This document shows, one piece after another, positions 5,725 through 40,225 of a stretch of DNA of 64,000 bases (position 1 is its first letter; the number at the start of each line of letters is the position of its first letter). The notes beneath the pieces are model-generated. The model was not told where the DNA came from, made no database searches, and saw only the letters and a list, made by a program, of their open reading frames with translations. The stretch lies in NCBI GenBank assembly GCA_947384775.1, contig CANDIF010000001.1, positions 121,976-185,975 on the forward strand. Direction: 5' to 3'. This stretch comes from an uncultured Clostridium sp. (GTDB lineage Bacteria > Bacillota > Clostridia > TANB77 > CAG-508). A program made the position numbers and the translations under genes.

Positions 5725-6078
5725 AAAATCACCTCTTCTTTTCTACTTTTGTAAAATATTAATAGCGAAAAACAAAAACATATTTTTTTGTTTTTTATAT
5801 TGACATTTTTATTTTATTAGTGTAAAATATATAGTTTTACATAAATTAATTATATCATCTATGAATTTTCTTGTCAATTTTTTACAGCTTGTTTGGAAGT
5901 ATCGTAAATTTAATCTTTTTTTGCTTTACCTAAATTATTTTATTAACTTTTATTTCTTTCAAAGCTATTTCAAGTATAATTATTGTAATTGTTATTCTTC
6001 ATGTTTCAAAACTTATTTCTAGATATTGCAAAATCTTTCAAAATATAGTAAAATACTAAGTTAAAGGAGTGGATAGAT

Positions 6079-8748: not shown

Positions 8749-11343
8749 TTATTTTACAATCAATCCCTCATTTTCCAAATCTATTGTAACGTTTTGTTTT
8801 GGAATAATTGCTTGTTCTATAATTTTACGAGCAATTAATGTTTCTAATTCTTTTTGAACAAATCTTTTTAATGGTCTTGCTCCATATATTGCATCATAAC
8901 CATTCTCAATTAAATATTCTTTTGCCTTATCTGTTAATGTAATTAATATTTCTTGCTCCTCTAATCTCCTATTTAAATCAGCTATTAACAATTCTAAAAT
9001 GCTTCCTATTTCATTTTGCGTTAATGGTTTATAGAATATTATTTCGTCTAATCTGTTTAAAAATTCTGGTCTAAAACTTTGTTTTAAAAGTTTGTTTACT
9101 TTATCTTTTGCTTCATCTGATATTTCTCCATTTTTATTAATTCCATCTAAAATATATTCTGATCCTAAATTTGATGTTAAGATTATTATTGTATTTTTAA
9201 AATCTACTGTTCTTCCTTGTGAATCTGTTATTCTTCCGTCATCTAATACTTGTAATAATACATTGAATACATCTGGATGAGCTTTTTCTATTTCGTCAAA
9301 TAATATTACTGAATATGGTTTTCTTCTAACAGCTTCTGTTAATTGTCCTCCTTCTTCATATCCAACATATCCTGGAGGCGCACCAATTAATCTTGATACA
9401 GAGAATTTCTCCATATATTCAGACATATCTATTCTTACTATATTATGTTCATCATCAAATAAGCTTTCTGCTAATGCTTTTGCAAGTTCCGTTTTACCAA
9501 CACCTGTTGGGCCTAAGAACATAAATGAACCAATAGGTCTACGACTATCATGTATTCCTGCCCTTGAACGAATTATTGCATCTGTTACTTTTCCTACAGC
9601 TTCATTTTGACCAATTACTCTTTGGTGTAAAACACTTCCTAAGTTTAATATCTTCTCTCTTTCGCTTTCCATTAATTTTGTTACTGGAATACCTGTCCAT
9701 TTTGCAATAATTTTAGTTATTTCTTCATCTGTTACTTTAGTTCTAAGTAAGCTAGATTCTTTAGATTTTTGAGCTATTTCTTCTTCTACTTTTAGTTGTT
9801 TTTGCAACTCTGGAAGCTTACCATATTTTAGTTCTGCTGCTTTGTTTAATTCATAATTTCTTTCAGCACTTTCTATTTGGCTATTTACTCTTTCTATATC
9901 TTCACGTAGTTTTTGAACTTTAGATATAGCATCTTTTTCATTATCCCATTTAGCTTTCATTTCATTAAACGTACTTTGCATTTCTGCAATTTCTTTTTGA
10001 ATTTCTTCTAATCTTTTTTTAGATTGGTCATCCTTTTCTTTTTTCAATGCTGTTTCTTCTATTTGGTGTTGCATTATTTTACGTGAAATTTCATCTAATT
10101 CTATTGGCATAGATTCCATTTCTGTTTTTATCATACTGCAAGCTTCATCAATAAGGTCTATTGCTTTATCTGGCAAAAATCTATCTGAAATATATCTATG
10201 AGATAAAGTTGCAGCTGTAATAATTGCATTATCACTTATTTCAACTCCGTGATATACCTCATATCTTTCTTTCAATCCTCTTAAAATAGAAATTGTATCT
10301 TCAACTGTTGGTTCATCTACTAAAACATGTTGAAAACGTCTTTCTAATGCTGGGTCTTTTTCTATATATTGTCTATATTCATTTAAAGTTGTAGCACCAA
10401 TACAATGAAGTTCTCCTCGAGCAAGCATTGGTTTTAAAAGATTACCTGCATCCATTGCACCATCAGTTTTTCCAGCACCAACTATTGTGTGAAGTTCGTC
10501 TATAAATAGAATTATTTTTCCTTCACTTTTTTTAATTTCTTGAAGAACTGCTTTCAATCTTTCTTCAAATTCACCTCTATATTTAGCGCCAGCAACCAAT
10601 GCTCCCATATCAAGAGAGAAAATAGTACATTCTTTTAAACCTGCAGGAACATCTCCTCTTACAATTCTTAAAGCTAAACCTTCAGCAATAGCAGTTTTAC
10701 CAACACCTGGTTCACCTATTAAGCATGGATTATTTTTAGTTTTTCTTGAAAGTATTCTAATTACATTTCTTATTTCATTATCTCTTCCTATAACTGGATC
10801 TAATTTTTGTTTTCTAGCCATTTCTACTAAGTCTGTACCATATTTTGCTAAAACATCGTAAGTATCTTCTGGATTATCTGTATTCACTTGTCTATTCCCC
10901 CTTACTTCTGATAATACTTTTAAAAATTTATTTTTTGTAATATCAAATGTTTTAAATAAGTCTTTTAATTTTGAATTTGCTTTATCTATTAATCCTAACA
11001 TTATATGTTCTACTGAAATATATTTATCTTTCATATCTTTTGCAATATTTTCAGCAGTAACTAAAGCCTCATCTGTATCTTTTGAAATATATACATTATC
11101 TATAGGTCTAGAATTATTTGAATGCATTCTTGGTTTATTATCAATTTCTTTTTTTAAAGTATGTTCAAACTCCTCATTTACATTCATTTTCTTTAATAAA
11201 GATTTTATTAAACTATTATCCTGAATAATTAATGAATAAAGTAAATGTTCTTGTTCTATCTGACTATTTTCATTTGATATAGCTAAACTTTGAGCTCCTT
11301 GTATAGCTTCTATTGATTTTTGAGTAAACTTTTGACTATTCAT
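8749..11343 (-). CDS. clpB: ATP-dependent chaperone ClpB
   Basis: 864 aa; Clp N domain, two AAA+ modules (GEPGVGKT, GPTGVGKT) and a long middle coiled coil. Confidence 0.95.
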   Translation of the reverse strand: MNSQKFTQKSIEAIQGAQSLAISNENSQIEQEHLLYSLIIQDNSLIKSLLKKMNVNEEFEHTLKKEIDNKPRMHSNNSRPIDNVYISKDTDEALVTAENIAKDMKDKYISVEHIMLGLIDKANSKLKDLFKTFDITKNKFLKVLSEVRGNRQVNTDNPEDTYDVLAKYGTDLVEMARKQKLDPVIGRDNEIRNVIRILSRKTKNNPCLIGEPGVGKTAIAEGLALRIVRGDVPAGLKECTIFSLDMGALVAGAKYRGEFEERLKAVLQEIKKSEGKIILFIDELHTIVGAGKTDGAMDAGNLLKPMLARGELHCIGATTLNEYRQYIEKDPALERRFQHVLVDEPTVEDTISILRGLKERYEVYHGVEISDNAIITAATLSHRYISDRFLPDKAIDLIDEACSMIKTEMESMPIELDEISRKIMQHQIEETALKKEKDDQSKKRLEEIQKEIAEMQSTFNEMKAKWDNEKDAISKVQKLREDIERVNSQIESAERNYELNKAAELKYGKLPELQKQLKVEEEIAQKSKESSLLRTKVTDEEITKIIAKWTGIPVTKLMESEREKILNLGSVLHQRVIGQNEAVGKVTDAIIRSRAGIHDSRRPIGSFMFLGPTGVGKTELAKALAESLFDDEHNIVRIDMSEYMEKFSVSRLIGAPPGYVGYEEGGQLTEAVRRKPYSVILFDEIEKAHPDVFNVLLQVLDDGRITDSQGRTVDFKNTIIILTSNLGSEYILDGINKNGEISDEAKDKVNKLLKQSFRPEFLNRLDEIIFYKPLTQNEIGSILELLIADLNRRLEEQEILITLTDKAKEYLIENGYDAIYGARPLKRFVQKELETLIARKIIEQAIIPKQNVTIDLENEGLIVK

Positions 11344-25216: not shown

Positions 25217-25431
25217 AATTGCTCTAATAAATATTTCTCATAAAGTACTCAGTAAAATGAATTTAATTAGTATTAAAAACCTATTAATACTATTTTATAT
25301 TTTATCATAAAATGGTGAAATTTGCAAAGTTTTCTGGTAATTTTATGTAAATAATTTCATTTTTCATTTTTAAAAGAATTAGCACTAACTCACTTTAGTA
25401 AATTAGTACATAAATATCTTCATATTATTAC

Positions 25432-25480
25432 TCACCAGCGGGCTGTAGGATAACCTACAGCCCGCTGGTTTTGTACAAAA
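25432..25480 (+). terminator. Perfect 14-bp GC-rich hairpin plus T-run at the edge of a higher-GC islet
   Basis: cagcgggctgtagg-ataa-cctacagcccgctgg-ttttg. Confidence 0.5.
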
Positions 25481-25507
25481 TTATTCGCACACAGTCTTGA
25501 CTCTTCT

Positions 25508-25939
25508 CTATTTAAGTTTATCAAATAGATTGTGGCACACCGTAAATGCTGCCACAAGAGAAAGAAGTGCATTTGCCACCCAAAATTGCCAAATTTGTAA
25601 TGCTGTGGGTAGCACAAACAGCATTAGTGAAAAAATGATAGTGAACGGAACGATAAAGCTGCACGCTTTTTCTGTGATTTTTTTCCACTTTTTCTGCCAG
25701 GTCACGCCAAAGAGCCCAAAATATATCCAGGCAGTCAGTGGCGCAATTGCCAGTTGAATGGTCCACATAGGAACAAACGCGTTGAAGTCGAATGGTAGTT
25801 CATGGCTTTCCAGCCAGACAAAGGTCACCAGTGTCAGCTGGAACAGGTATGCTGTTGCAATACCCGCTAAGATTGCCCATAGTTCATTGCCTTTCCGTTT
25901 CATGTGCTTTTCATCCTTTCTTGTAGCCAAGATTAACAT
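25508..25939 (-). CDS. Small 4-TM membrane protein, higher-GC islet gene. Likely real start is Met13 (25903), which has an RBS
   Basis: 143 aa (131 from the second Met), ~45% GC. Confidence 0.5.
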   Translation of the reverse strand: MLILATRKDEKHMKRKGNELWAILAGIATAYLFQLTLVTFVWLESHELPFDFNAFVPMWTIQLAIAPLTAWIYFGLFGVTWQKKWKKITEKACSFIVPFTIIFSLMLFVLPTALQIWQFWVANALLSLVAAFTVCHNLFDKLK

Positions 25940-26051
25940 AGGGCGAATTCCCTAATGACTGTGATTGTATCATATTTATGTTGATTTGTAAATTAGTATT
26001 TTTTAGATGTCTCTTTGAATGGAATTATTCGACACTAGTTTTATTTTTTTA

Positions 26052-26116
26052 CTGACATTCTGCCCCGTCCCTTCTGACACCTTCTGATGTCACTTGGGAC
26101 GGGGTCATTTGACATT
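26052..26116. repeat. REP-like repeat cluster A (right-end copy abutting the RAYT stop codon)
   Basis: tgacattctgccccgtccc + 2 x ccttctga iteron + inverted unit tgtcacttgggacggggtcatttgacatt. GC-rich 9-bp palindrome arms CCCCGTCCC/GGGACGGGG. Confidence 0.75.
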
Positions 26117-26789
26117 AATTATTATACAGCTTTCTTATTTTTTCTCTATTCATTTGTAATAATTGAGAAATTTTCCTTAGTGATAATCCATTATCTCTTT
26201 TTAATATCAACAGTAATTCTTTTAATTTTACTTTACTCTTTTTTAATTCGTTTATTTCTAAATTATTTTCTATCAAAAACCTTGCTATTAACTCTTGACA
26301 AATATTTTCATTGTCAACATCTAAAAATATATAACCGTCTTCTAGAACTTTATTTTCATCTTTGCAATCTGAATACGGATATTCTTTTGCTTGATTGCAT
26401 ATTCCTGCTTTTACAGGATTATTATGAATATAATTAATGCAATTGCATAATTATTCTTCACTATATATGCCTTCTGATTTATACCTATCTCTAAATACAT
26501 ATCCTACTCTTTTATGCTTATTATTATAGTATTGAGCATATTGAGTGTTAATTTTGTGCATATATTTACTAAGATTTTCTATGTTATCAGTTTGTAACAA
26601 CATGTGTGTGTGATTATTCATAATACAGTATGCTAATATATCTACATTTTCTTTCTTCGCTACTCTTTTCATCAATTCTATGTAATATTCTATATCTTCT
26701 TTTTTATCAAATATGTAACTCTTATTTATTCCTTGAGTTATAATATGAAAATATGATGTCTGTATATAACTTCTTGGAAATCTTGGCAT
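26115..26789 (-). pseudogene. REP-associated tyrosine transposase (IS200/IS605 Y1 family, RAYT-like) with C-terminal DnaA-domain-IV-like HTH; interrupted by an in-frame TAA at 26451-26453
   Basis: N-terminal 112 aa: PRFPRSYIQTSYFHI, HuH motif NHTHML, catalytic Tyr in VFRDRYKSE. In the same frame after the TAA the translation continues ...INYIHNNPVKAGICNQAKEYPYSDC... (conserved IS200 TnpA C-terminus) plus an HTH (LSLRKISQLLQMNREKIRK), ending at 26115. Confidence 0.7.
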
Positions 26790-26886
26790 TTCAGACTCAA
26801 CTCCTCTATCATCAAATTTTTTGTATTTATTCTACATTATTTTTCACAATAAATTTGTCGAAATTTGTCTTTAATCCGTTTATTTT

Positions 26887-27012
26887 TTTATGTCATTCTG
26901 CCCCGTCCCTTCTGACACCTTCTGACATTTTTTTATGTCATTCTGCCCCGTCCCTTCTGACACCTTCTGATGCCTTCTGACCCCCTTTTGACCTTTTGAC
27001 ACTTTTGACATC
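26887..27012. repeat. REP-like repeat cluster B (two tandem direct units upstream of the RAYT gene)
   Basis: 2 x tttatgtcattctgccccgtcccttctgacaccttctga, then decaying iterons ccttctga/ccccttttga/ccttttgac/acttttgaca. Confidence 0.75.
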
Positions 27013-27520
27013 ATTTAATCAAGTCTTCATTAATACACTCTAATATCCTTTCATATATACTATCAAAATCAATATTCATTAGTCTTTCATTTAACTTTAG
27101 ATACAATTGATTTTTTTCTTTTATGTGCATATTCTTTCTGTTATATACTCCTTGTAATTGTTCTATAACATAATTTAAATTGCGATTACCAATTATGTCA
27201 TTATATTTTTTTACTATATTTATGTTTTTAATTATATTTTCTTCAAGATTTTTAAATAGTTTTATATATATTTCTTCTTTTTCTTTAATGGAATAATTAT
27301 AATATTGCCTTATCAAAATATCTTCAATATTATTATTTTTATAAAATTTCACATGTATATAAATATTATAAAAACTATATATCAGATTTTCCCATTTTCT
27401 AAGTAAATTTACTCCACTTACATGTTCTTTGCTTGTTACCGTATTAACAATTTCATCTTTTATGCTTATTAATTTTCCCCAACTGTCATATGTATATGAT
27501 GTCACTTGGGACGGGGTCAT
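27011..27520 (-). CDS. Orphan RHS-derived fragment: N-terminus homologous to the RHS core region (SYTYDSWGKLISIKDE), remainder unrelated with no DPxGL
   Basis: 169 aa. Codons 1-7 (MTPSQVT) are encoded by the REP inverted unit. Residues 8-23 are ~90% nt-identical to 28861-28896 in the main RHS gene. Confidence 0.45.
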   Translation of the reverse strand: MTPSQVTSYTYDSWGKLISIKDEIVNTVTSKEHVSGVNLLRKWENLIYSFYNIYIHVKFYKNNNIEDILIRQYYNYSIKEKEEIYIKLFKNLEENIIKNINIVKKYNDIIGNRNLNYVIEQLQGVYNRKNMHIKEKNQLYLKLNERLMNIDFDSIYERILECINEDLIK

Positions 27521-27647
27521 TTGACATTAAATTCATTTTTCTCTATGTCATTCTGCCCCGTCCCTACTGACAAATTCATTTTTCTCTATGTCATTATGCC
27601 CCGTCCCTTCTGACACCTTCTGACACCTTCTGACACCTTTTGACATC
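27497..27647. repeat. REP-like repeat cluster C (one inverted unit + two direct units + four 10-bp iterons)
   Basis: tgtcacttgggacggggtcatttgacatta; 2 x aattcatttttctctatgtcatt[c/a]tgccccgtccc; ccttctgaca x3 + ccttttgacatc. Confidence 0.75.
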
Positions 27648-28038
27648 AATAGATAATATATTTGATTTTTTCACATATAATATATGTTATTTCATTATCT
27701 ATATTAGTTTCATTCCATTCCATGCTGTCTGCCCAAAAAATTAAATTATTATTCATATACATTTTTGCCCCATCTATATTATTAAAATATTTACTTTTAT
27801 CGTATATATGTATATTCATTTGTTTTATTCTTTCAAAATGTATTTCAATGGTACCTCCTAATTGACTTTTTAAAATCATCTTAATTTCACTTTCTTCGTC
27901 TTGTCTCATATATTTTCTTTCATCAACATACATACCTGTTTTACAAAAGAATTCTATTACGCAACTATCATGAAAATTATAAAATTTCTTCATTATTTCA
28001 TCAATATCATTTTGCGAAGTTACATTTTTCCAATCCAT
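27646..28038 (-). CDS. Putative cognate immunity protein for the RHS C-terminal toxin
   Basis: 130 aa, soluble, immediately 3' (68-nt gap) of the toxin-encoding end of the RHS gene, no recognisable family. Call is positional. Confidence 0.45.
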   Translation of the reverse strand: MDWKNVTSQNDIDEIMKKFYNFHDSCVIEFFCKTGMYVDERKYMRQDEESEIKMILKSQLGGTIEIHFERIKQMNIHIYDKSKYFNNIDGAKMYMNNNLIFWADSMEWNETNIDNEITYIICEKIKYIIY

Positions 28039-28106
28039 ATTTCTAAATTTTATATAATGAAATTATATTTCACTATATTCTCCTTTCTTTTATATACTTT
28101 TTTTAT

Positions 28107-31100
28107 TTATGGTGTTGCAGCATTAGCTGGAATAGTCCACCATAAAGCTGGAAATAGTGACGGTATCATTCTTATTCCTCTATATAAAACATATCCACCC
28201 ACACCTATTCCAATTCCTTTTCCTAAATTTCTAAAATTATATGCAGGTCCTCTTTTGCACTTGTCTCCATCCCATTCCCAATCATGGTTATGTGGAAATT
28301 TATGAGTTCCATCATCAGTATGGTTATAATCAGTATCTCGTGTTGCTTTTCCATCAGGTCCATAATATCTTCTCTTTTTTATCGTTCCATCTGGATTTAA
28401 TAAATCTTCTGTGGAATTAGGTTTTCCCTTTGTTGATAAGTCCTCAGCGAATCTAATGTTTTTTCTTGTATATGCACTATTATTAGAAATTGCAGATATT
28501 TTTATAGCATTTTTTGCCATATTTGTTGCAATTATAGGTGCTGATAATTTTTGGATTTCTTTACTTATTAAATTTTTAATATTTTTTATAATTGATAAAA
28601 TCGAAACACTTCCTAATGGATCATAATAATTTATAGGATTATTTGAACAGTATGCAAACAAGTTATGTCCTATTATTTCATTCCCACCATTAAACGTCCC
28701 ATCCGCATTCAAGAATCTTCCCCATTCTGGGTTATAGTATCTTGAATTTAGGTAATATAGTCCTGTTTCTGTATCGTATCTATAACTCCTATATCTGTAT
28801 GGGTTTGCTATTCCCACATGATTTGGGTCTGTTATCTCTTTTCCTTCTTCATCTTTTATGCTTACCATTTTTCCCCAGCTGTCATATGTATATGATACTA
28901 TGTGATTTTTATTATTGTCAAGTATTCCTATTATATCTCCTTGTAAATTTTTTAAATATAAATAAATAGCTCCATTATACCTTAGTCCCATAATGTCTCC
29001 ATTGTTGTCGTAGAAATAGTATATTACACTATTACTGTTATCTTTTTTCTCATATATTACTTTTGTTCCTTCTAAAAAGTATTCTGTTGTTACTCCATTT
29101 ACTGTTTTTTCTGTCCTTATTCCTTCATCATTATACTTATAACTTATGTTTAATCCTGTATTTTCATTTGTTATACTTTTTAATTCTCTTCCATTCTGCC
29201 AAGTGTATGTATTTCCATTATATGATAATGGATTTCCAATTGTATCATATGTTATTGTTTGTCCATTGTAACTTGTTAATTGATCTTTCCAATTTGTATT
29301 TCCATATGTATAATTTATCGTTTTTGTTGCTGTTCCTAATTCTCCTGTTGTATATGGATATTCTGTTTTATTTGTAATATTTCCTCCTAAATCATATTCA
29401 TATGTGATAGTTTTACTTAAAGTTTCATTATTTTCTCTTTTTAATTGGTTTAAGCTGTCATAATAATATGTTGCACTTTGTCTACCTCTTACATTCTTTA
29501 TATTACCTAATTCATCATAATTATATCCTATGAAAAATGAATCTCCCTCAATACTTGATACTCTTGATGTTGTTCTATTACTATCTACATTTTCATAGTC
29601 ATACCTTATAATATAAGATTTATTGGCTCCACTAATAAATTTTCTACTTAATCTCGATAAATTGTCATAATCAAATTCCATTGAAATACTATTCCCTGAA
29701 TTTGAGTCTCCAGAATATGTTGAAACAGATGTAATTCTGTTTTGATTATCATATCCATAATTTTCTCTACTTATATTGCCATTGAATACATATTCTGAAT
29801 AATTTAAATTGTTGTTTTTATCATATTTGTAAGCTCTCTTAAATCCATATAAAGCATTATAAACGTTTGTTATTCTTCCTGATAAATCATATGTATAGTA
29901 TTCCTTTATTCCTTCTGGTGTTTCTATGTATGCTAAATTTGATTGTGCATCGTACTTATATTTATATGTTCCTTGCTCTTTTGTTTGTGTTGTCATTATA
30001 TTAAATCTATCATATGTATATGATATCGTATCATCATTTCCATATATCACACTATTTAAATTTCCATAGTTTTCATCATAATTATTTGTTATCAATGTTT
30101 GATTAGCTATTTTTACTTGTTTTCTATTTCCATATTCATCATATGTAAAATAATAGTTAAATCTATTATGAGCTATTGTATTTATTCTATCATTTTCATA
30201 TGTATACCTATTTTGATATGTTTTGTTTCCTACTGTTTTGCTTACTATGCTTATTCTTCCTAATTCATCATATGTGTAATTTGTTTCTGTTCCTTTGGCA
30301 TCTGTTACTTTATCTAAATTTCCATTTGTTTGGTTGTATTCATATGTTGTTTCTTTTCCTGTTTCGTCTTTTATTTTTGTTAGATAATTTCCATTTTCTG
30401 TATATTCTGCATTTGTTTCTATATATTTACTATTTGTATTGTTTGTTATCTTTGAAGTTGTTGCTTGTCCGTATTGGTTATATGTAAAGTTATAATTTAC
30501 TTCGGTGCTACTTATCGCTTTGGTTAGTCTATGTTTATATGTTGTATCATATTGATATTCAAATGTTCCACCCCTTGGATTTGTGTATTTTATTAAATTA
30601 TCATTTCCATCGTACTGAAATGTATTGTTCTGCTTTGCCAAATCTTGTGTTTTTATAATATTTCCATTACTATCATATTGATAGCTTTGCCCAAAGTGGT
30701 CTTTATATAATGCTACATTTGTTATATATGCTACATTTAGATTTTCGTAAAAACAGAAATATACTTGTATCTTTCTATAGTCATGTTCAGCTATAAATTC
30801 ATTTTGTACAAACTGCCATTGATCACTTGGATTTACTCTTACTGTTCTCCATTGTTGTTCACCGTTGTTTCCTATTATGCATACTGTAAAATCTGTAACG
30901 GTAGTATTATTTTTATTTCTTACTCCTCCTGCATATATCCATGCAGATATGCTAAATACATCTCCTTGTTTTCCTCCTGTTATTACATCTTGACGTATAT
31001 ATTTTTTTACAGTAGCTTCTCCTTCTAATTTGTAAAAATTACTTCCAGTTCCTACTGGTAGTGCTACCCAGTCTATATTTGGATTTGTATTATATGTTAT

Positions 31101-34100
31101 CCAACTCTTTGGATTACTTCCAGTATAATCAAATGCTGAGTTTTCTACCATATTATATTGGTTTTCAATAAATCCTTCTTCTACTTGTATATCGTCATAA
31201 TATATTGTGCCTGTATTTCCGAAAAATCCAATTACAACAGTCAAACTACTTGTTGCATCTTCTGGATAATATAAACTTAATGAGTATTTGTTCCATTCTG
31301 AATTTTTTTCAATAATATCTTGCTCTTCCATAACTCTATTTCCTGAAGCATCTAGATAATACAATTGTATATATCCCTCTCCAAGACTAGTCTTTTCAAG
31401 TTTTAATTTAAGAGATAAAGTATATGTTTTTCCCTTTTCTGCATTACAGTAATGATACGCTGCTGGTTGAACACTTTCTGTAAAGATACTTGATATTTTC
31501 ATACTTCTACTTCCAGTATAGCTATCTTCTGTACTGTATTCTATTGAACCAGGATTATTCCCCCAATTTCTAAATTCCCATTCTCCATCATATTCAAAAC
31601 TTCCATTAAATACTAAATTATTTACTGATTTTGTTAATGATCCATCCAATGTTAATCTATTTTTAGCTCCGCCACTTTCTCCATAATTGTACACTTTTCC
31701 ATATGCTTGACTAAGGTCAATTCCATCTTTTCCGAAATCTGCTACACTTATTGCTTGTCCCCAATCATTAAATGTTACATTATTACTAAAACCTTTATTA
31801 TCTGTAAATGTTGTTAAGTTGTCGTTATATGCTATGGTTAATCTATTTCCTAATTCTAAATTACTTGCACGTTCTTCTATTGTTTTTACTCTGTTAGTTT
31901 TTTCTGGATAATATTCAAAATTCAAATGTTTCCCATCTATATTTAATAGCATAACTAATAAATTATTTTGGTATACTAGCATTGATTCTCTGTTATCTAA
32001 ATATTTAATTTCTCCTAATGTACCATCATTGTAGCATACAAATTGCATTGATTTTCCATCTGGACCTGTTAATTTGTTCAAATAGTTTCCCGCATATTCA
32101 AAGGTTATTTCTTGTCCTGCTCCATCTGTTACTTTAGATATAACAAAGTCATTTGCCTCTGTTTCTGAAAATGTTATTATTATTTTATTTCCATTGTTAT
32201 CTTCTATTTCTTTTAAGTGCCATAAATATCTTCCTGCAACCGTTCTTCTTTCGAACCTTATTACATTATCTCCTTTATCTTTCATGCTAAACACTGCTGT
32301 TGCTGCATCTAATGTTAATTCTAAATTTAATCCATCTTCGTCTTTATATATATTTCCTTCTTTGGTAAAATAATGTCTTGTTCCATCTTCATCTATATAT
32401 TCTGCATATTCTGTACCACCTATTGTTACCAATTCTATTGTTTGTGATAAATTAAGTCTCATTCCATTTCCATATCTGGAACCTATATCTTTATCGTTTG
32501 TATTATATACATGTGTTATTGTTACTGGAAACCTTTCTCCTGGTGTTGATATATCGTTATGTATCCATACTAAATTTCCATTATAGTCATTTGTATATAC
32601 TGTTCCTGCTCTTCCCAAATCTTGAGTATGGTAACTTAAATAATCTTCTAATCCTGTTTGATTTCTATATATAATTTGTACTACTGGTCTTCCTTCATAC
32701 CAAGTTACATTTGTATCTGATGAAATAAAATATGCATCATTTCCTGAAACATTATTTGCTTCTGAATGTTCTTTTATCATTACACCATAGTTATTTCCTG
32801 TTGTGTACCACTCTTTAGCTGCTGTTGTTATATTAAATGTATATTGTTTACATTGGTTGTTATAATCGAATTGATATAGAATAAAATCTTCTGCTCTTGA
32901 ATTGTAATTTGCATTTGTATTACTCCATGTTGCTGTATTTTCATTCCAATCTGCAGTTATTTTATGTGCATCTAATTGTATTTGTCTAGTATTAGGTGTC
33001 CATTCACTTGTTTTTGGATATGTAAATATATTTAAATATGCTCCTATTACTTGATCTCCAGCTTTGAGTTCTGGAAGATTAAATTTTACTAAACTTCTTG
33101 TTGGGACTCCACTATTGTTTCCTGCTCTTATTATGTGTGCATTTCCTTTTGGGTCACTTCCTTGGCTTGAATATATAAATGTATCCTTAATATCATCATA
33201 ATATCTTGATGTAATTATGCTTGGATCTATTGTTATTGGATATATTCTTTCTGCTGCTTCTAGCCATTTTTTATCTGGTATTAATGTTATTATGTATTTA
33301 TCTGCTTGCTTTTCTAATTTTATATCAATATCTGAACTAAACTCTAATTTGTTGTCATACATAAATGGTGCTTCTATTGTAAATTTTACATTTTCTTCTG
33401 TCTTATCGTATACTATTATGTCTTTTGTTTCTAATAGTTTCATTTCAAGTGTTCCAACATCATATACAAATTTCAATTCATTATTTATTGATTCTTTATT
33501 TTGTAATATAATGTTTTCTTTTACATGTTCTGGTTCTGCTGAATATTCTATGCTTATATTACTTAATATTTCATTATATTCTATAGATGTTGTTGGTATT
33601 TGTGTTTTTACTTCTTTTGCTCGTAAACCTTTAACTTCTCTTTTCTCTAAGTTTTTATTATTTACATTTACTTTTGAAGATTGCGAATTTACTAATCCCC
33701 ATTTTATTGTATATCCTTCACTTTCCATACTTCCTAATCTGTATCCATTTGTTTTATTAGTAAAATATATTTGTGCATTTCCTGTTTTATTTTTGTAAAT
33801 TTTTGTTTCCTTTTTCTGTTCTTCTATTATTGCTTTATTTAATTTTTCTTCTATTTGATTGTTTTGCATCATTTCTATTTTAGTATTTTCTTCTGTTATT
33901 TTTAGTTTTTCTTCTGTATCAATTACTTCCTCTAATGTATTGTCTACATCTAGGAATTTTCCATCTTTCTCATAATGTACATTACTTGGAAATACTGATG
34001 CCACTACACTTCCATCTGACCTTAGGAAATGTTTTTCTGTATATGTTCTTTCTTCTTCCAGTTCTCCGATTATAACTGGTTCTGCTTTTTCCTGTTCTTT

Positions 34101-34292
34101 TGCTTGCTTTTCTAAATGTTCATCTAAACTTTTATGCATGTCTACTTTTGCTTCCATTTTATTGATTACAGCGTTTATATTTACTGCAATTGCAATATTT
34201 GGCACAAATTGAAAGACCATCACAAACACAAGTATTGTTGCAATGATCTTTTTTAATTTCTTTGGGCTTAAATGTTTTTGCATATTCATCAC
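28107..34292 (-). CDS. RHS/YD-repeat polymorphic toxin (WapA-like wall-associated protein) with Sec signal peptide and variable C-terminal toxin domain
   Basis: 2061 aa. N-terminal signal/TM (IIATILVFVMVFQFV). Dozens of YD repeats (YxYDxxGRL/ YTYD...G.). RHS repeat-associated core ending in the hallmark ...NPINYYDPLG (DPxGL). Then a 167-aa CT. Confidence 0.85.
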   Translation of the reverse strand: MMNMQKHLSPKKLKKIIATILVFVMVFQFVPNIAIAVNINAVINKMEAKVDMHKSLDEHLEKQAKEQEKAEPVIIGELEEERTYTEKHFLRSDGSVVASVFPSNVHYEKDGKFLDVDNTLEEVIDTEEKLKITEENTKIEMMQNNQIEEKLNKAIIEEQKKETKIYKNKTGNAQIYFTNKTNGYRLGSMESEGYTIKWGLVNSQSSKVNVNNKNLEKREVKGLRAKEVKTQIPTTSIEYNEILSNISIEYSAEPEHVKENIILQNKESINNELKFVYDVGTLEMKLLETKDIIVYDKTEENVKFTIEAPFMYDNKLEFSSDIDIKLEKQADKYIITLIPDKKWLEAAERIYPITIDPSIITSRYYDDIKDTFIYSSQGSDPKGNAHIIRAGNNSGVPTRSLVKFNLPELKAGDQVIGAYLNIFTYPKTSEWTPNTRQIQLDAHKITADWNENTATWSNTNANYNSRAEDFILYQFDYNNQCKQYTFNITTAAKEWYTTGNNYGVMIKEHSEANNVSGNDAYFISSDTNVTWYEGRPVVQIIYRNQTGLEDYLSYHTQDLGRAGTVYTNDYNGNLVWIHNDISTPGERFPVTITHVYNTNDKDIGSRYGNGMRLNLSQTIELVTIGGTEYAEYIDEDGTRHYFTKEGNIYKDEDGLNLELTLDAATAVFSMKDKGDNVIRFERRTVAGRYLWHLKEIEDNNGNKIIITFSETEANDFVISKVTDGAGQEITFEYAGNYLNKLTGPDGKSMQFVCYNDGTLGEIKYLDNRESMLVYQNNLLVMLLNIDGKHLNFEYYPEKTNRVKTIEERASNLELGNRLTIAYNDNLTTFTDNKGFSNNVTFNDWGQAISVADFGKDGIDLSQAYGKVYNYGESGGAKNRLTLDGSLTKSVNNLVFNGSFEYDGEWEFRNWGNNPGSIEYSTEDSYTGSRSMKISSIFTESVQPAAYHYCNAEKGKTYTLSLKLKLEKTSLGEGYIQLYYLDASGNRVMEEQDIIEKNSEWNKYSLSLYYPEDATSSLTVVIGFFGNTGTIYYDDIQVEEGFIENQYNMVENSAFDYTGSNPKSWITYNTNPNIDWVALPVGTGSNFYKLEGEATVKKYIRQDVITGGKQGDVFSISAWIYAGGVRNKNNTTVTDFTVCIIGNNGEQQWRTVRVNPSDQWQFVQNEFIAEHDYRKIQVYFCFYENLNVAYITNVALYKDHFGQSYQYDSNGNIIKTQDLAKQNNTFQYDGNDNLIKYTNPRGGTFEYQYDTTYKHRLTKAISSTEVNYNFTYNQYGQATTSKITNNTNSKYIETNAEYTENGNYLTKIKDETGKETTYEYNQTNGNLDKVTDAKGTETNYTYDELGRISIVSKTVGNKTYQNRYTYENDRINTIAHNRFNYYFTYDEYGNRKQVKIANQTLITNNYDENYGNLNSVIYGNDDTISYTYDRFNIMTTQTKEQGTYKYKYDAQSNLAYIETPEGIKEYYTYDLSGRITNVYNALYGFKRAYKYDKNNNLNYSEYVFNGNISRENYGYDNQNRITSVSTYSGDSNSGNSISMEFDYDNLSRLSRKFISGANKSYIIRYDYENVDSNRTTSRVSSIEGDSFFIGYNYDELGNIKNVRGRQSATYYYDSLNQLKRENNETLSKTITYEYDLGGNITNKTEYPYTTGELGTATKTINYTYGNTNWKDQLTSYNGQTITYDTIGNPLSYNGNTYTWQNGRELKSITNENTGLNISYKYNDEGIRTEKTVNGVTTEYFLEGTKVIYEKKDNSNSVIYYFYDNNGDIMGLRYNGAIYLYLKNLQGDIIGILDNNKNHIVSYTYDSWGKMVSIKDEEGKEITDPNHVGIANPYRYRSYRYDTETGLYYLNSRYYNPEWGRFLNADGTFNGGNEIIGHNLFAYCSNNPINYYDPLGSVSILSIIKNIKNLISKEIQKLSAPIIATNMAKNAIKISAISNNSAYTRKNIRFAEDLSTKGKPNSTEDLLNPDGTIKKRRYYGPDGKATRDTDYNHTDDGTHKFPHNHDWEWDGDKCKRGPAYNFRNLGKGIGIGVGGYVLYRGIRMIPSLFPALWWTIPANAATP
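28110..28610 (-). other. C-terminal toxin (CT) domain of the RHS protein, after the DPLG motif; family unassigned
   Basis: 167 aa after YYDPLG. His/Asp-rich motif DYNHTDDGTHKFPHNHDWEWDGD and a C-terminal glycine-zipper LGKGIGIGVGGYVLYRG. GC ~36%, higher than the repeat body. Confidence 0.5.
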
Positions 34293-35345: not shown

Positions 35346-36515
35346 TTAGCCAAATATTCCCTTTTTCTTTACTGGTGGTTGTTCACTCATTGTTTTAGCA
35401 AGTTTTGTTAATAGTTCTCTTTGTTCTGATGTTAGCTTTTTCGGGATTTGAACTTCAACTGTGAATATATAATCACCTTTCCAATTATTGTTTACTGCTT
35501 TAAATCCTTTATTTTTTATAACAAATTTTGTTCCTGGCTGTGTACCTTCTGGAATTTTATAATTTTCTTTTGATCCGTCAACCATTGGAATTTCTAAATT
35601 TGCTCCTAATGTTGCTTGTGTAAATGTTATTGGTATATTGCAAAGAACATTATCTCCTTGTCTTTTATATATCTTATGATTTCTTACTGAAACTACAATA
35701 TATAAATCTCCATTTGGTCCGCCTTTATTTCCATGTTCTCCTTCGCCTTTTAATACTACAGTCTGACCATGTGAAATTCCAGCTGGTATGTTAACTTCTA
35801 TTTTAACATTTTTACTTACAAATCCTTTTCCTTTACAATCAGGACATTTTTCTTCAACTATTGTTCCTTCTCCATTACAAACTGAACAAGTTTTAGTTGT
35901 TTGCATTTGTCCTAATATTGTACTAACTGTTTGTGTTACAGTTCCTTTTCCTCCACAGCTTTTACATGTTACAACATTTGTCCCTGGTTTTGCTTTTGTT
36001 CCATGACATGTCTTACATTCTTCATTTCTATTTATTGAAATTTCTTTTTTTACTCCAAGGAATGATTCTTCAAATGTTATATCCATATTGTATTGCAAAT
36101 CTCTTCCTTTTCTAGGACCATTTGATTTTTGTCTTGAACTTGTTCTTCCACCAAATCCAGCTCCGCCACCGAAAATGCTTGAGAAAATATCTCCTAAATC
36201 TCCAAAATCGTCAAATCCATTGAAACCTGAAGAAGTATATGAATAATAGCCTCCTCCTGGACCTCCTGCTGCTTGTGGTCCATCATGTCCAAATTGATCA
36301 TACATTCTTCTTTTTTGTGAATCTGATAATACTTCATATGCTTCTGATACTTCTTTGAATTTTTCTTCTGCTTCTTCCCTATTATCTGGATTTGCATCAG
36401 GATGATATTTTTTTGCTAGTTTTCTATATGCCTTTTTTAATTCATCATCTGTTACGTTTTTATTAACTCCTAAAACTTCATAATAATCACGTTTATTTGC
36501 CATGTTTCCCTCCAT
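35346..36515 (-). CDS. dnaJ: Chaperone DnaJ. True start probably MANKRDYY, about 4 codons inside the ORF
   Basis: J domain with HPD, G/F-rich region, four CxxCxGxG zinc-finger repeats. Confidence 0.95.
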
Positions 36516-36627
36516 TTAAACAATATGTTTAATTGTAATTCTTTTTCTATTGTAAATTATATCTACAATATTTATAAATATTACACATATAATTTACAAT
36601 TTTTTAGTTATAACAAAATAGTTAATA

Positions 36628-36737
36628 ACCTCCTTTATTAAGGGAGGTGGCAATCCGAAGGATTGACGGAGGGTTCTTATCTGTTTTTGAAGAACCCCCA
36701 GTCACCTATCGGTGACAGCCCCCTTGTTAAAGGGGCT
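36628..36737 (-). other. GC-rich array of five consecutive hairpins between dnaK and dnaJ (structured RNA element or complex attenuator/terminator)
   Basis: acctcctttattaagggaggt; caatccgaaggattg; gggttctt...aagaaccc; gtcacctatcggtgac; agcccccttgttaaaggggct. Much higher GC than surroundings. Confidence 0.4.
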
Positions 36738-36759
36738 TTAGCGGTTAATGCAATATTGA

Positions 36760-38631
<1,872 letters not shown>

Positions 38632-38666
38632 TTAAATTTTGAATTTATATTATTTAAAATTAAAAT

Positions 38667-39182
38667 CTAATTAGCAACCACTACCATAGCATGGCGTATA
38701 ATCTTGCTTCCTATCTTATATCCTTTTCTAAATTCTTCTTTAACAATTTTCTCTCCTAAAGATTCATCTTGCACACTACTTACAGCTTCATGTACTTCTG
38801 GATCAAAAGGCTTTCCTACTGTTTCTATTGTTTCTACTCCAAAACGTGTAAAAATATCATTTATCTGTTTTACAACTAATTCAATTCCTTGTTTCATATT
38901 TTCATCTGCAGTATCTGCCATGCACGCCTTTTCTAAATTATCAACTACAGGTAAAAATGCTGCAATTATATCTGCCAATACATTACTGTACAGCATCTCA
39001 CGCTCTTTTGAATTTCTTTTTTTATAGTTTTCGAATTCTGCCATCACTCTTTTTAATCTGTCTACTGTTTCTTCTAGCTCTTTTTCTGTATTATCTAATT
39101 CACTATTTTTTTGAACTTCTTGTTCTTCTTTTTTTTCTTCTAATTTTTCCTCTGACATGTACTTTCCTCCTATTTTTATCAA
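38667..39182 (-). CDS. grpE: Nucleotide exchange factor GrpE
   Basis: 171 aa; acidic N-terminus, coiled coil, GrpE C-terminal beta domain. Operon position hrcA-grpE-dnaK-dnaJ. Confidence 0.9.
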   Translation of the reverse strand: MIKIGGKYMSEEKLEEKKEEQEVQKNSELDNTEKELEETVDRLKRVMAEFENYKKRNSKEREMLYSNVLADIIAAFLPVVDNLEKACMADTADENMKQGIELVVKQINDIFTRFGVETIETVGKPFDPEVHEAVSSVQDESLGEKIVKEEFRKGYKIGSKIIRHAMVVVAN

Positions 39183-40216
39183 TTTTCAGTATCGTTATCA
39201 TTTAGTTCTTCATTTAACTTTTTATTTATATATTTCATAACAGAAATTACTTTAGAATAATCCATTCTTTTAGGTCCTATAATTCCTATTGTTCCGAAAT
39301 TTTTATTTCCTATCATATGCTTAAATGTTATTATGCTTAAGTCTCTAAGTTCTTCTCTATCATTTTCACTGCCTATATGAATATTAATATCATCTGCAAA
39401 TCCAGAATTTAATATTTCCATCACTTGTTCTTTTGTATCTAAAATACTTAAGAAATTTCTTGCTGCGTCTATCTTTTTAAATTCTGGAAAATCAAAAACA
39501 TTACTTGTTCCTTCTAAGTAAAATTCTTCTGTTTCTCCTAATGATTTATTTAATTGCTCAATTATAGGCTTTATTACATCTACTTGATCTGACATTGATG
39601 ATATTATATATTCTTCCATTGGTTTATCAATTTTAGTCAATCTTTTGCCTTTTAATTTATTGTTGAATAGATAATTTAAACTTTCTAATTGATTTTCTGT
39701 TATATCTTCATCATACTTTATAATAGTTTCTTTAATTGCTCCACTTTCTGTAAGTATAACTGCCATTAAAATTCTATTTCCCAATAACACTAATTTTACA
39801 TCTGAAATGATATCATCTGTATTATCTGGTCCTATTGCTACTGTAGTATAATGTGTTATTTCAGATAATGTATTTGTTGTTATTTTTGTTAAATCTTGAA
39901 TTTCATTTACTTTGAATTCTAATCGTTCTTTTATATACTGAATTTCATCTAAGCTGATTTTTTCATCATTTAAAAGTTCATCAACATAAAATCTATATCC
40001 TTTAGCTGAAGGAACTCTTCCAGATGATGTATGTGGTTTTTCAATATATCCTAAATGCTCTAATTCTGCCATCTCATTTCTTATTGTTGCACTGCTACAA
40101 TTTAAGTCATAATTTTCTACAATTACTCCAGAGCTTACTGGTTCTGCTGTATTTATATATTCTTCTATTATTGCTTGTAGAATTTTCTTTTTTCTTTCGT
40201 CTAGCAATTTTATCAC
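39179..40216 (-). CDS. hrcA: Heat-inducible transcription repressor HrcA (apparent GTG start)
   Basis: 345 aa; N-terminal winged HTH, first gene of the dnaK operon, CIRCE operators upstream. Confidence 0.9.
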   Translation of the reverse strand: MIKLLDERKKKILQAIIEEYINTAEPVSSGVIVENYDLNCSSATIRNEMAELEHLGYIEKPHTSSGRVPSAKGYRFYVDELLNDEKISLDEIQYIKERLEFKVNEIQDLTKITTNTLSEITHYTTVAIGPDNTDDIISDVKLVLLGNRILMAVILTESGAIKETIIKYDEDITENQLESLNYLFNNKLKGKRLTKIDKPMEEYIISSMSDQVDVIKPIIEQLNKSLGETEEFYLEGTSNVFDFPEFKKIDAARNFLSILDTKEQVMEILNSGFADDINIHIGSENDREELRDLSIITFKHMIGNKNFGTIGIIGPKRMDYSKVISVMKYINKKLNEELNDNDTEN

Positions 40217-40225
40217 CTCAAAAAA

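Follow-up and report, generated by a model that had tools for sequence, protein, structure and literature searches.

REP-associated tyrosine transposases (RAYTs; REP, repetitive extragenic palindromic) are regarded as domesticated transposases, and to our knowledge their reactions have been seen only in vitro. Among the IS200/IS605 insertion sequences, IS608 inserts 3' of TTAC and ISDra2 3' of TTGAT. Arrays of orphan Rhs toxin and immunity genes, in turn, reportedly arise from C-terminal displacement. Here we analyse a locus at which a REP unit abuts a fragment of RHS (rearrangement hotspot) core, located in a stretch of 64,000 nucleotides (nt) from an uncultured Clostridium sp. (assembly GCA_947384775.1, contig CANDIF010000001.1), which we call the window. 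The REPtron has been described from E. coli and other Proteobacteria (Nunvar 2010; Ton-Hoang 2012, PMC3333891; Messing 2012, PMC3479197; Corneloup 2021, PMC8266576). The E. coli enzyme, TnpA-REP, cleaves single-stranded DNA between C and T beside the inverted REP (iREP), in linkers and at a distance, and capture of flanking gene fragments by BIMEs (bacterial interspersed mosaic elements) has been proposed from this cleavage (PMC3333891). Group 1 RAYTs have been reported in Clostridia (PMC5581495). In Neisseria, loss of porA by deletion between REP-like clusters has been reported (van der Ende 1999, in the reference list of PMC10210955). We found no literature that links REP or RAYT to rhs or other polymorphic toxin arrays, and nothing relevant on DUF4085.

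Our reading of the locus, which we consider probable, is that the right foot of an inverted REP unit became fused to RHS core through joining of the RAYT type, that this joint is old, that a REP-independent deletion came later, and that the ATG carried by the repeat is incidental. The comparison draws on 25 fetched loci with the junction, several being the same contig twice, which represent about six haplotypes (window type, L129/L138, L130/L139, L131/L140, L132/L141 and L009). Contigs that encode an identical open reading frame (ORF) of 130 amino acids (aa) beside the same RHS gene are referred to as sister arrays, and comprise four haplotypes.

REP units, their doublets and the RAYT gene

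The repeat at the junction is a 27-nt REP unit with the layout TGTCA-N3-GGGACGGGG-N5-TGACA (27500-27526), opposite in orientation to its two neighbours at 27546-27572 and 27589-27615. Seven such units occur in the window, where shuffles predict 0.01; all of them lie within 26053-27615, and the other 62 kb hold none. An exact copy of the 34 nt at 27497-27530 lies at 26085-26118, where a RAYT gene has its 3' end. The repeats and this gene are arranged as follows (REPd, direct unit; REPi, inverted unit; REPIN, REP doublet forming hairpins):

27616..27645, minus strand: 10-nt left foot of the REP in three tandem copies (TGTCAAAAGG, and TGTCAGAAGG twice), directly after the TGA of the 130-aa ORF
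27589..27615, minus strand: REPd-1, direct REP unit (motif match)
27546..27572, minus strand: REPd-2, direct REP unit, left half of the REPIN doublet (motif match, fold)
27500..27526, plus strand: REPi, inverted REP unit, right half of the REPIN (motif match, identity of the 34-nt repeat)
26883..27010, minus strand: REP cluster of degenerate foot decamers and then two tandem REPd (26936-26962, 26891-26917), after the TGA of the 169-aa ORF
26115..26789, minus strand: RAYT gene, a pseudogene in the window (Pfam Y1_Tnp, E 1.8e-13; NF047646)
26053..26118, minus strand: tail-to-tail doublet of REPi (26088-26114) and REPd (26053-26079) at the RAYT 3' end, with the RAYT TAA stop at the doublet edge

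Folded as single-stranded DNA, the doublet at 27497-27575 reaches -19.4 kcal/mol (z -6.8), and as RNA -53 kcal/mol (z -6.6); the second doublet (26053-26118) reaches -15.9 kcal/mol (z -5.8). A well-folding hairpin is predicted at the level of the REPIN only. Covariance models from Rfam gave no family match, the single sub-threshold hit being a chance match (22.8 bits, gathering threshold 65.3). REP clusters start 0-10 nt past stop codons. For three genes in the window the stop codon itself abuts a REP foot, as TGA followed by TGTCAAAAG twice and TAA followed by TGTCAAATG once (27646-27648, 27011-27013 and 26115-26117), and L009 likewise has TAA directly followed by TGTCAAATGG. The decamers also vary in number: between near-identical strains the left-foot decamer GTGTCAGAAG is present three or four times, L129 having one more than the window (27616-27645; L129 5394-5440), and the foot decamer CCAAGTGACA once or twice (window 27497-27506; L130 5530-5550).

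The RAYT gene lies 700 bp from the doublet at the junction. Its product scores 89.6 bits on the NCBIfam model NF047646 (REP_Tyr_transpos, cut-off 80) and 24.4 bits on the IS200 model NF033573, below the cut-off of 55, and has an HTH (HUH motif) in NNHTHML and a tyrosine in NYIHNNP. REP units surround the gene, two REPd upstream (26891-26962) and REPi plus REPd downstream (REPi 26088-26114). The window copy contains a nonsense change of CAA to TAA at 26451-26453 (Q113*), so that the tyrosine-bearing part is cut off. The gene is intact, with 224 aa, in L129/L138, L130/L139 and L132/L141, and Q113* is also found in L140 (GCA_948946075.1). Homologues are numerous (1862 proteins at E<=1e-20). RAYT homologues are not generally next to RHS arrays: in three other species (L142, L144 and L146) they are 57-64% identical, lie among housekeeping genes, and are each bracketed by one direct upstream and one inverted downstream REP:

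L142: REPs at 8880-8900 and 9675-9705
L144: REPs at 8880-8905 and 9685-9715
L146: REPs at 8845-8890 and 9685-9720

Between species, the REP core co-varies with the RAYT protein (GGGGACGGAG, GGGGACGTAG). Scanning one genome per species, we found that inverted doublets of units built in the same way occur in ordinary intergenic DNA on many contigs of AT-rich Clostridia metagenome-assembled genomes (MAGs), for example related units on at least seven contigs of JAAVYV01; these figures come from the matches listed, which include many chance matches in G+C-rich genomes, and give no per-genome copy numbers. The initial annotation had called the repeat a REP, and rightly so, since it flanks a RAYT gene and related units form inverted doublets in many Clostridia MAGs. 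We conclude that the repeats are a REP/RAYT system with the doublet, or REPIN, as its functional unit.

Two side observations belong here. A related species (L025, 73-87% identical over the dnaK region) has a REPIN at 2874-2935, directly upstream of dnaK, and the window has none there (35346-40219). Beside the RAYT gene, the G+C content rises to 43-45% (25430-25999) from 17-34% in the surroundings; the patch contains an ORF of 143 aa for a predicted membrane protein (25508-25939), which is followed by a perfect 16-bp inverted repeat (25434-25469); sister strains have a 131-aa or a 143-aa ORF at this site, so the spot adjacent to the RAYT gene is also variable.

The 169-aa ORF, its ATG and the sister strains

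On the minus strand, 27520-27500 reads atgaccccgtcccaagtgaca, or M T P S Q V T, and opens a 169-aa ORF (27011..27520) whose protein starts with MTPSQVTSYTYDSWGK. The initial annotation had thus correctly placed the first seven codons of the ORF inside the inverted REP unit. It had further placed the beginning of RHS homology right after the REP, at SYTYDSWGK; by local DNA alignment, homology to the main RHS gene starts at 27500 (ATCA...), corresponding to main-gene position 28896 at codon 1800 (SYTYDSWGK, 28895), so the two edges do coincide, with the joint uncertain by 3 nt because TCA is also present in the other REP copy. As for the ORF being an orphan RHS fragment, we find instead a chimera of three parts, in which RHS contributes only 49 nt:

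28107..34292, minus strand: main RHS gene, 2061 aa, with a C-terminal Tox-WTIP tip (PF15654, E 8.3e-10)
27646..28038, minus strand: 130-aa ORF directly after the RHS tip, no family match
27011..27520, minus strand: chimeric ORF, 169 aa, with 7 codons of REP, 16 of RHS and 146 of a DUF4085 gene
27452..27500, minus strand: RHS-core scrap, 49 nt (SYTYDSWGKLISIKDE), 45/49 identical to 28848-28896
27452..27457, minus strand: GATGAA microhomology at the deletion joint (alignment to L130)
27011..27451, minus strand: 3' portion of a gene of the DUF4085 family, matching the last part of the 340-aa gene of L130 at 100% identity

From DEIVNTVT on, the product matches the C-terminal half of DUF4085-family proteins (about 295-340 aa), P0001 being 74% identical. 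The Pfam domain itself (PF13315) has no match in the 169-aa ORF: it spans residues 16-111 of the 340-aa sister protein, a part that is deleted in the window, and the 146 aa retained are the C-terminal half outside the domain. We also considered IVNTVTSKEHVSGVN as diverged RHS core (compare GKEITDPNHVGIAN) and rejected this, given its exact match to P0001 and to the DUF4085 gene of L130. Orphan Rhs tips have core for recombination, a DPxG motif, a toxin and an immunity gene; of these the 169-aa ORF has only the 49 nt of core.

The origin of the chimera can be read from the sister strains. The stretch of the window from 29000 to 27452 aligns to L130 4039-5597 (99.4%) and that from 27457 to 26055 aligns to L130 8991-10393 (99.9%), so the window equals L130 minus 3,399 bp, with GATGAA at both ends of the deletion. 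Lost with the deletion were the remainder of a 269-aa orphan tip, two genes of 285 and 123 aa, an 80-aa Tox-WTIP fragment, scraps flanked by REPs, and the first 194 codons of the 340-aa DUF4085 gene. The 169-aa fusion ORF is the scar of a lineage-specific deletion between two GATGAA hexamers. An identical ORF is present in 14 metagenome contigs, and all eight of those displayed have the Q113* RAYT.

The joint between REP and RHS core has a different age. REPi directly followed by TCATATACATATGA is present in every sister haplotype, where it heads an intact orphan RHS tip of 269 or 274 aa; the 269-aa ORF does have the makings of an orphan tip, with a core tail, ...GIDYNGE, a GIY-YIG-like domain and the 285-aa gene next to it. 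The same joint is found in L009, a 6-kb contig from another MAG, where an Ntox44 orphan of 269 aa follows it. Going by this distribution, the junction is ancestral and older than the deletion. We found no related genome that has an orphan at the junction and lacks the REP. Among RHS-tail homologues, none of 30 short fragments, which start at many positions, carried a REP-encoded N-terminal peptide (TPSQVT, PVP). The repeats of L009 deserve a separate remark. Its inverted units are mostly of the type ...CCCCGTCCCCATTGACA (1730-1760, 2105-2130, 6015-6045), whereas the unit abutting the SYTYD orphan (4490-4530) is of the type of the window's species, ...CCCCGTCCCAAGTGACA, with the 10-nt duplication, and its partner REPd is of the L009 type; this doublet looks like a hybrid REPIN, as if the cassette came with its REP half.

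Does the repeat, then, supply a start codon? According to the initial annotation, the REP could provide translation initiation for the displaced fragment; in this scenario the REP ATG (27520-27518), or the in-frame GTG at 27505-27503, would translate it, the repeat having been co-opted as a start-codon donor. Both codons lie within REPi, whose right foot ...GTGACA ends at 27500. Several observations speak for this scenario: both codons share the frame of the ORF in the window type and the L129/L138 haplotype, and the GTG does so in every haplotype; the 169-aa frame is uninterrupted in DNA that is AT-rich, and does not vary among the 14 contigs; and L009 carries the C-terminal DUF4085 half as a separate 189-aa ORF. 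Against these stands the absence of both a Shine-Dalgarno (SD) sequence and a promoter-like site. Pairing of the 20 nt before the ATG with the anti-SD sequence gives +0.4 kcal/mol, and before the GTG +0.7, as compared with -9.7 for the RAYT gene and a median of -8.9 for 36 long ORFs in the window; no promoter-like site was found on the minus strand at 27530-27660. In the predicted fold, moreover, the ATG is base-paired in the stem of REPd and REPi, of about -19 kcal/mol. Its frame also varies among haplotypes, the ATG being out of frame with the RHS codons in L130, L131, L132, L135, L136 and L009, where the orphan is intact; because of the 10-nt duplication of CCAAGTGACA, 31 rather than 21 nt separate it from the TCA there, and gene callers then use the GTG. 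An RHS tail without shell or secretion domain would, judging from Rhs biology, have no delivery route, and the open frame is explained by a very recent origin, as the flanks are 99.9-100% identical to those of sister strains. No internal start with an SD was found in the 169-aa ORF, the first in-frame Met being about 130 codons in. Finally, an in-frame TAA (27529-27527) lies within the repeat, just outside the 27-nt unit, so an ORF finder must open the frame at the REP ATG, and the pattern of a REP supplying the start carries no statistical weight. We therefore regard the start-codon donor as highly improbable. The proposed initiation is not supported, given the missing SD, the position of the ATG in the REPIN stem and the unconserved frame, and on sequence grounds the ATG is incidental and very unlikely to be a selected initiation site. 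In RNA, the REPIN would more probably act as a stable hairpin 3' of both the RHS gene and the 130-aa ORF. The start codon in itself matters little, as a by-product of the deletion scar.

Related observations come from nearby frames. In L131 (=L140), the called start of a 312-aa ORF (9437-10375, Ntox44 orphan) precedes the REP cluster, and the ORF runs in frame through the whole REPIN; it is another REP that is 'translated' only because the frame happens to be open. The position of the 130-aa ORF, whose adjacency to the RHS gene is conserved in at least 21 contigs, suggests that it is the cognate immunity gene. Its annotated ATG has no SD (+0.5 kcal/mol; 28039-28090, minus strand). A strong AAGGAGA (28079-28085) precedes the GTG of a 7-codon mini-ORF (VKYNFII*) that ends 11 nt before this ATG, and coupling or re-initiation from the mini-ORF to the 130-aa ORF is possible.

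REP feet as breakpoints in the cassette array

We compared the arrays over the interval that separates the stop codon of the 130-aa ORF from the RAYT start, which measures 4424 nt in L138, 4306 in L139, 5699 in L140, 4426 in L141 and 897 in the window. All block boundaries among the four sister arrays lie at REP feet, in agreement with the earlier proposal that the REPs mark rearrangement of the toxin-tip array. L139 diverges from L138 at the right foot of a REPi and rejoins it at the left foot of a REPd; in L140, two successive REPd units enclose an Ntox44 and 164-aa cassette, at the right foot of the first and the left foot of the second; and L141 has an extra whole REPd unit of 29 nt, joined after ...GACATA. 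The Ntox44 orphan, complete in L140, lacks its first 683 nt in L138 and its first 711 nt in L141, both truncations being joined to the same ...AAGTGACA foot. Scraps are found between REPs as well, one of 55 nt, at 98% identity to window 28105-28159, with the final 17 codons of Tox-WTIP (L131/L132 7989-8175) and one of 29 nt that encodes NPEWGRFLN of RHS core (L009 5920-5985). The 6 kb of L009 contain ten REP cores, with a cluster in every cassette spacer.

For nine junctions of a foot with a fragment an intact reference was available (main gene, L140 or L139), and gapless extrapolation was used to obtain the sequence just before the retained part. At eight of them the reference ends in TA there (agTA, aaTA, gaTA, atTA, aaTA, aaTA, acTA), and at the ninth in CA. 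With TA frequencies of 0.10-0.12 in the reference sequences, the probability of at least 7 of 8 comes to about 1e-6 to 7e-6; restricted to the five cleanest junctions it is about 2e-5. As the foot ends in CA, a YA dinucleotide precedes every break. Microhomology does not explain the TA signature, since foot and targets have a single base in common, nor does codon phase, since the junctions are in mixed phases. This geometry is the one that would be expected, by analogy with IS200/IS605, of a Y1 HUH enzyme joining 3' of a short target without duplication. A parallel is also seen in the preference of E. coli TnpA-REP for C followed by T.

These observations fit the following course of events. 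The REPi right foot ...GTGACA would have been joined to RHS core just 3' of ...ATAGTA (or of ...GTATCA, given the 3-nt ambiguity) by target-specific single-strand cleavage and joining of the RAYT type 3' of YA, mostly TA, and the other junctions between REPs and toxin fragments may have been made likewise. Two routes are conceivable: insertion of a REPIN 3' of TA, followed by homologous recombination between REPINs that removes the upstream part, or REP-anchored adjacent deletion. Both are putative, and the nested series of 0, 683 and 711 nt favours the latter. Later, the 3,399-bp deletion between GATGAA copies removed most of the orphan, three further cassettes and the 5' part of the DUF4085 gene, leaving an in-frame fusion in which the first ATG after the upstream stop happens to be in the REP. 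REPINs may thus act as portable homology and breakpoints by which cassettes are trimmed, lost and exchanged. More tentatively, and at odds we would put clearly below even, the array may record in vivo footprints of RAYT cutting at the foot (after CA) and after TA, with REPIN/RAYT as a boundary and turnover device, in a gut Clostridia bacterium, for toxin cassettes that are trimmed, excised and possibly re-inserted.

Alternatively, no transposase need be involved: REPs would sit downstream of immunity genes, and RHS tip displacement together with illegitimate and RecA-dependent REPIN recombination would have made the junctions. The clusters do begin 0-10 nt after stop codons, a common position for REPs; a crossover anywhere between identical REPINs would seem to lie at the repeat edge; the deletion in the window is a plain microhomology event; and for Neisseria a deletion through recombination between REP clusters has been reported (van der Ende 1999, cited in PMC10210955). 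However, TA before the retained toxin DNA at 8/9 references, against a null of 0.10-0.12, would be left unexplained, truncations of 0, 683 and 711 nt at the same foot would need separate earlier REPIN insertions 28 nt apart, and the foot has only 1 nt of homology with the targets. We consider this explanation rather unlikely. False joints could also arise where assemblers jump between REP copies through repeats of 70-150 nt, and most of the sequences compared are metagenome or MAG contigs. Nevertheless, independent assemblies of many samples, from the different pipelines of ENA, NCBI and JGI, agree on the joints, with contigs of up to 172 kb; scraps flanked by REPs on both sides cannot come from a repeat jump; and the window itself has the joint. 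An assembly artefact is thus barely credible.

Several points weigh against our own reading, RAYT-type joining at an old junction with an incidental ATG. Lone REP units, with their 5-bp foot stem, fold poorly and no better than shuffles (-1.3 and -1.8 kcal/mol, z -0.8 and -1.4). Both the window lineage and L140 have a dead RAYT gene, the deletion in the window is independent of REPs, and neither excised circles nor empty sites were seen. In the window's species REPs are seen only at the toxin-array locus, dispersal being seen in relatives. Recombination between near-identical REPINs alone would also put apparent breakpoints at REP edges, and the TA rule comes from 8-9 junctions in two related arrays, with an ambiguity of 1-3 nt at each. 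RAYT-mediated joining is our inference from sequence. Lastly, translation from the REP ATG or GTG retains a small probability on sequence grounds, the upstream 130-aa ORF being likewise without an SD. As an aside, the only REP-independent rearrangement seen, the 3,399-bp deletion, belongs to a RAYT-dead lineage.

The pattern at the level of the array, drawn from few junctions in one species and one related contig, appears worth following up. Strains with flanks that are 99-100% identical differ by gains and losses of cassettes and by nested truncations ending at REP feet, and a natural record of this kind could give the target rule and reaction geometry of a RAYT.

Comparison with known systems

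Short hairpin-forming repeats that bound cassettes and act as points of deletion or exchange are a feature that the locus shares with repeat-mediated deletion in Neisseria, with Correia elements and with integron attC arrays. The likeness is one of analogy only, and there is no integrase-type tyrosine recombinase here. With IS200/IS605 elements the system has in common a Y1 HUH enzyme and ends defined by hairpins, and insertion 3' of a short target without duplication would leave a flank that starts just after TA. The RAYT is nonetheless distinct, since it stays below the IS200 cut-off (24.4 vs 55 bits), has no tnpB, and is a single-copy gene with non-autonomous repeats.

The likeness to the REPtron of Proteobacteria goes further. 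In both, a single Y1 HUH transposase-like gene lies between its own repeat units in opposite orientations; doublets have short linkers, clusters come right after stop codons, and the copy number of units varies; and cleavage of single-stranded DNA is proposed to be dinucleotide-specific, next to the unit and at a distance. The host here, however, is an AT-rich Clostridia bacterium. The unit in the window is a 5-bp foot stem around the conserved GGGACGGGG loop, as opposed to the G+C-rich stem preceded by GTAG of the REPtron, and the target would be TA or YA rather than C followed by T. The RAYT protein also has an extra C-terminal part of about 85 aa, and in the window's species its units are seen in one toxin array instead of hundreds of times. 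As in the REPIN-RAYT system of Pseudomonas (Bertels & Rainey 2011, PMC3116915; Bertels 2017, PMC5581495), the mobile unit is an inverted doublet forming a long hairpin, the RAYT is single-copy, and the REP core co-varies with the RAYT between species. That work describes neither REPINs abutting truncated genes nor any association with polymorphic toxin arrays.

Finally, the locus has the layout of an Rhs orphan array, in which a main rhs gene and an immunity gene are followed by tip fragments that have neither promoter nor start and come with immunity genes; where a tip keeps core homology, which here extends over about 200-280 nt at 84-90%, recombination with the main gene would be possible. 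Most orphans here are truncated beyond the core and consequently cannot be re-activated, and the 'orphan' of the window is 49 nt of core with no DPxG motif, toxin or immunity gene. REP-linked trimming may explain why many array orphans are truncated beyond rescue. What sets this array apart from other Rhs orphan arrays is that every cassette boundary is a REPIN, which suggests that orphan arrays may turn over in a second way, in addition to homologous recombination in the rhs core.

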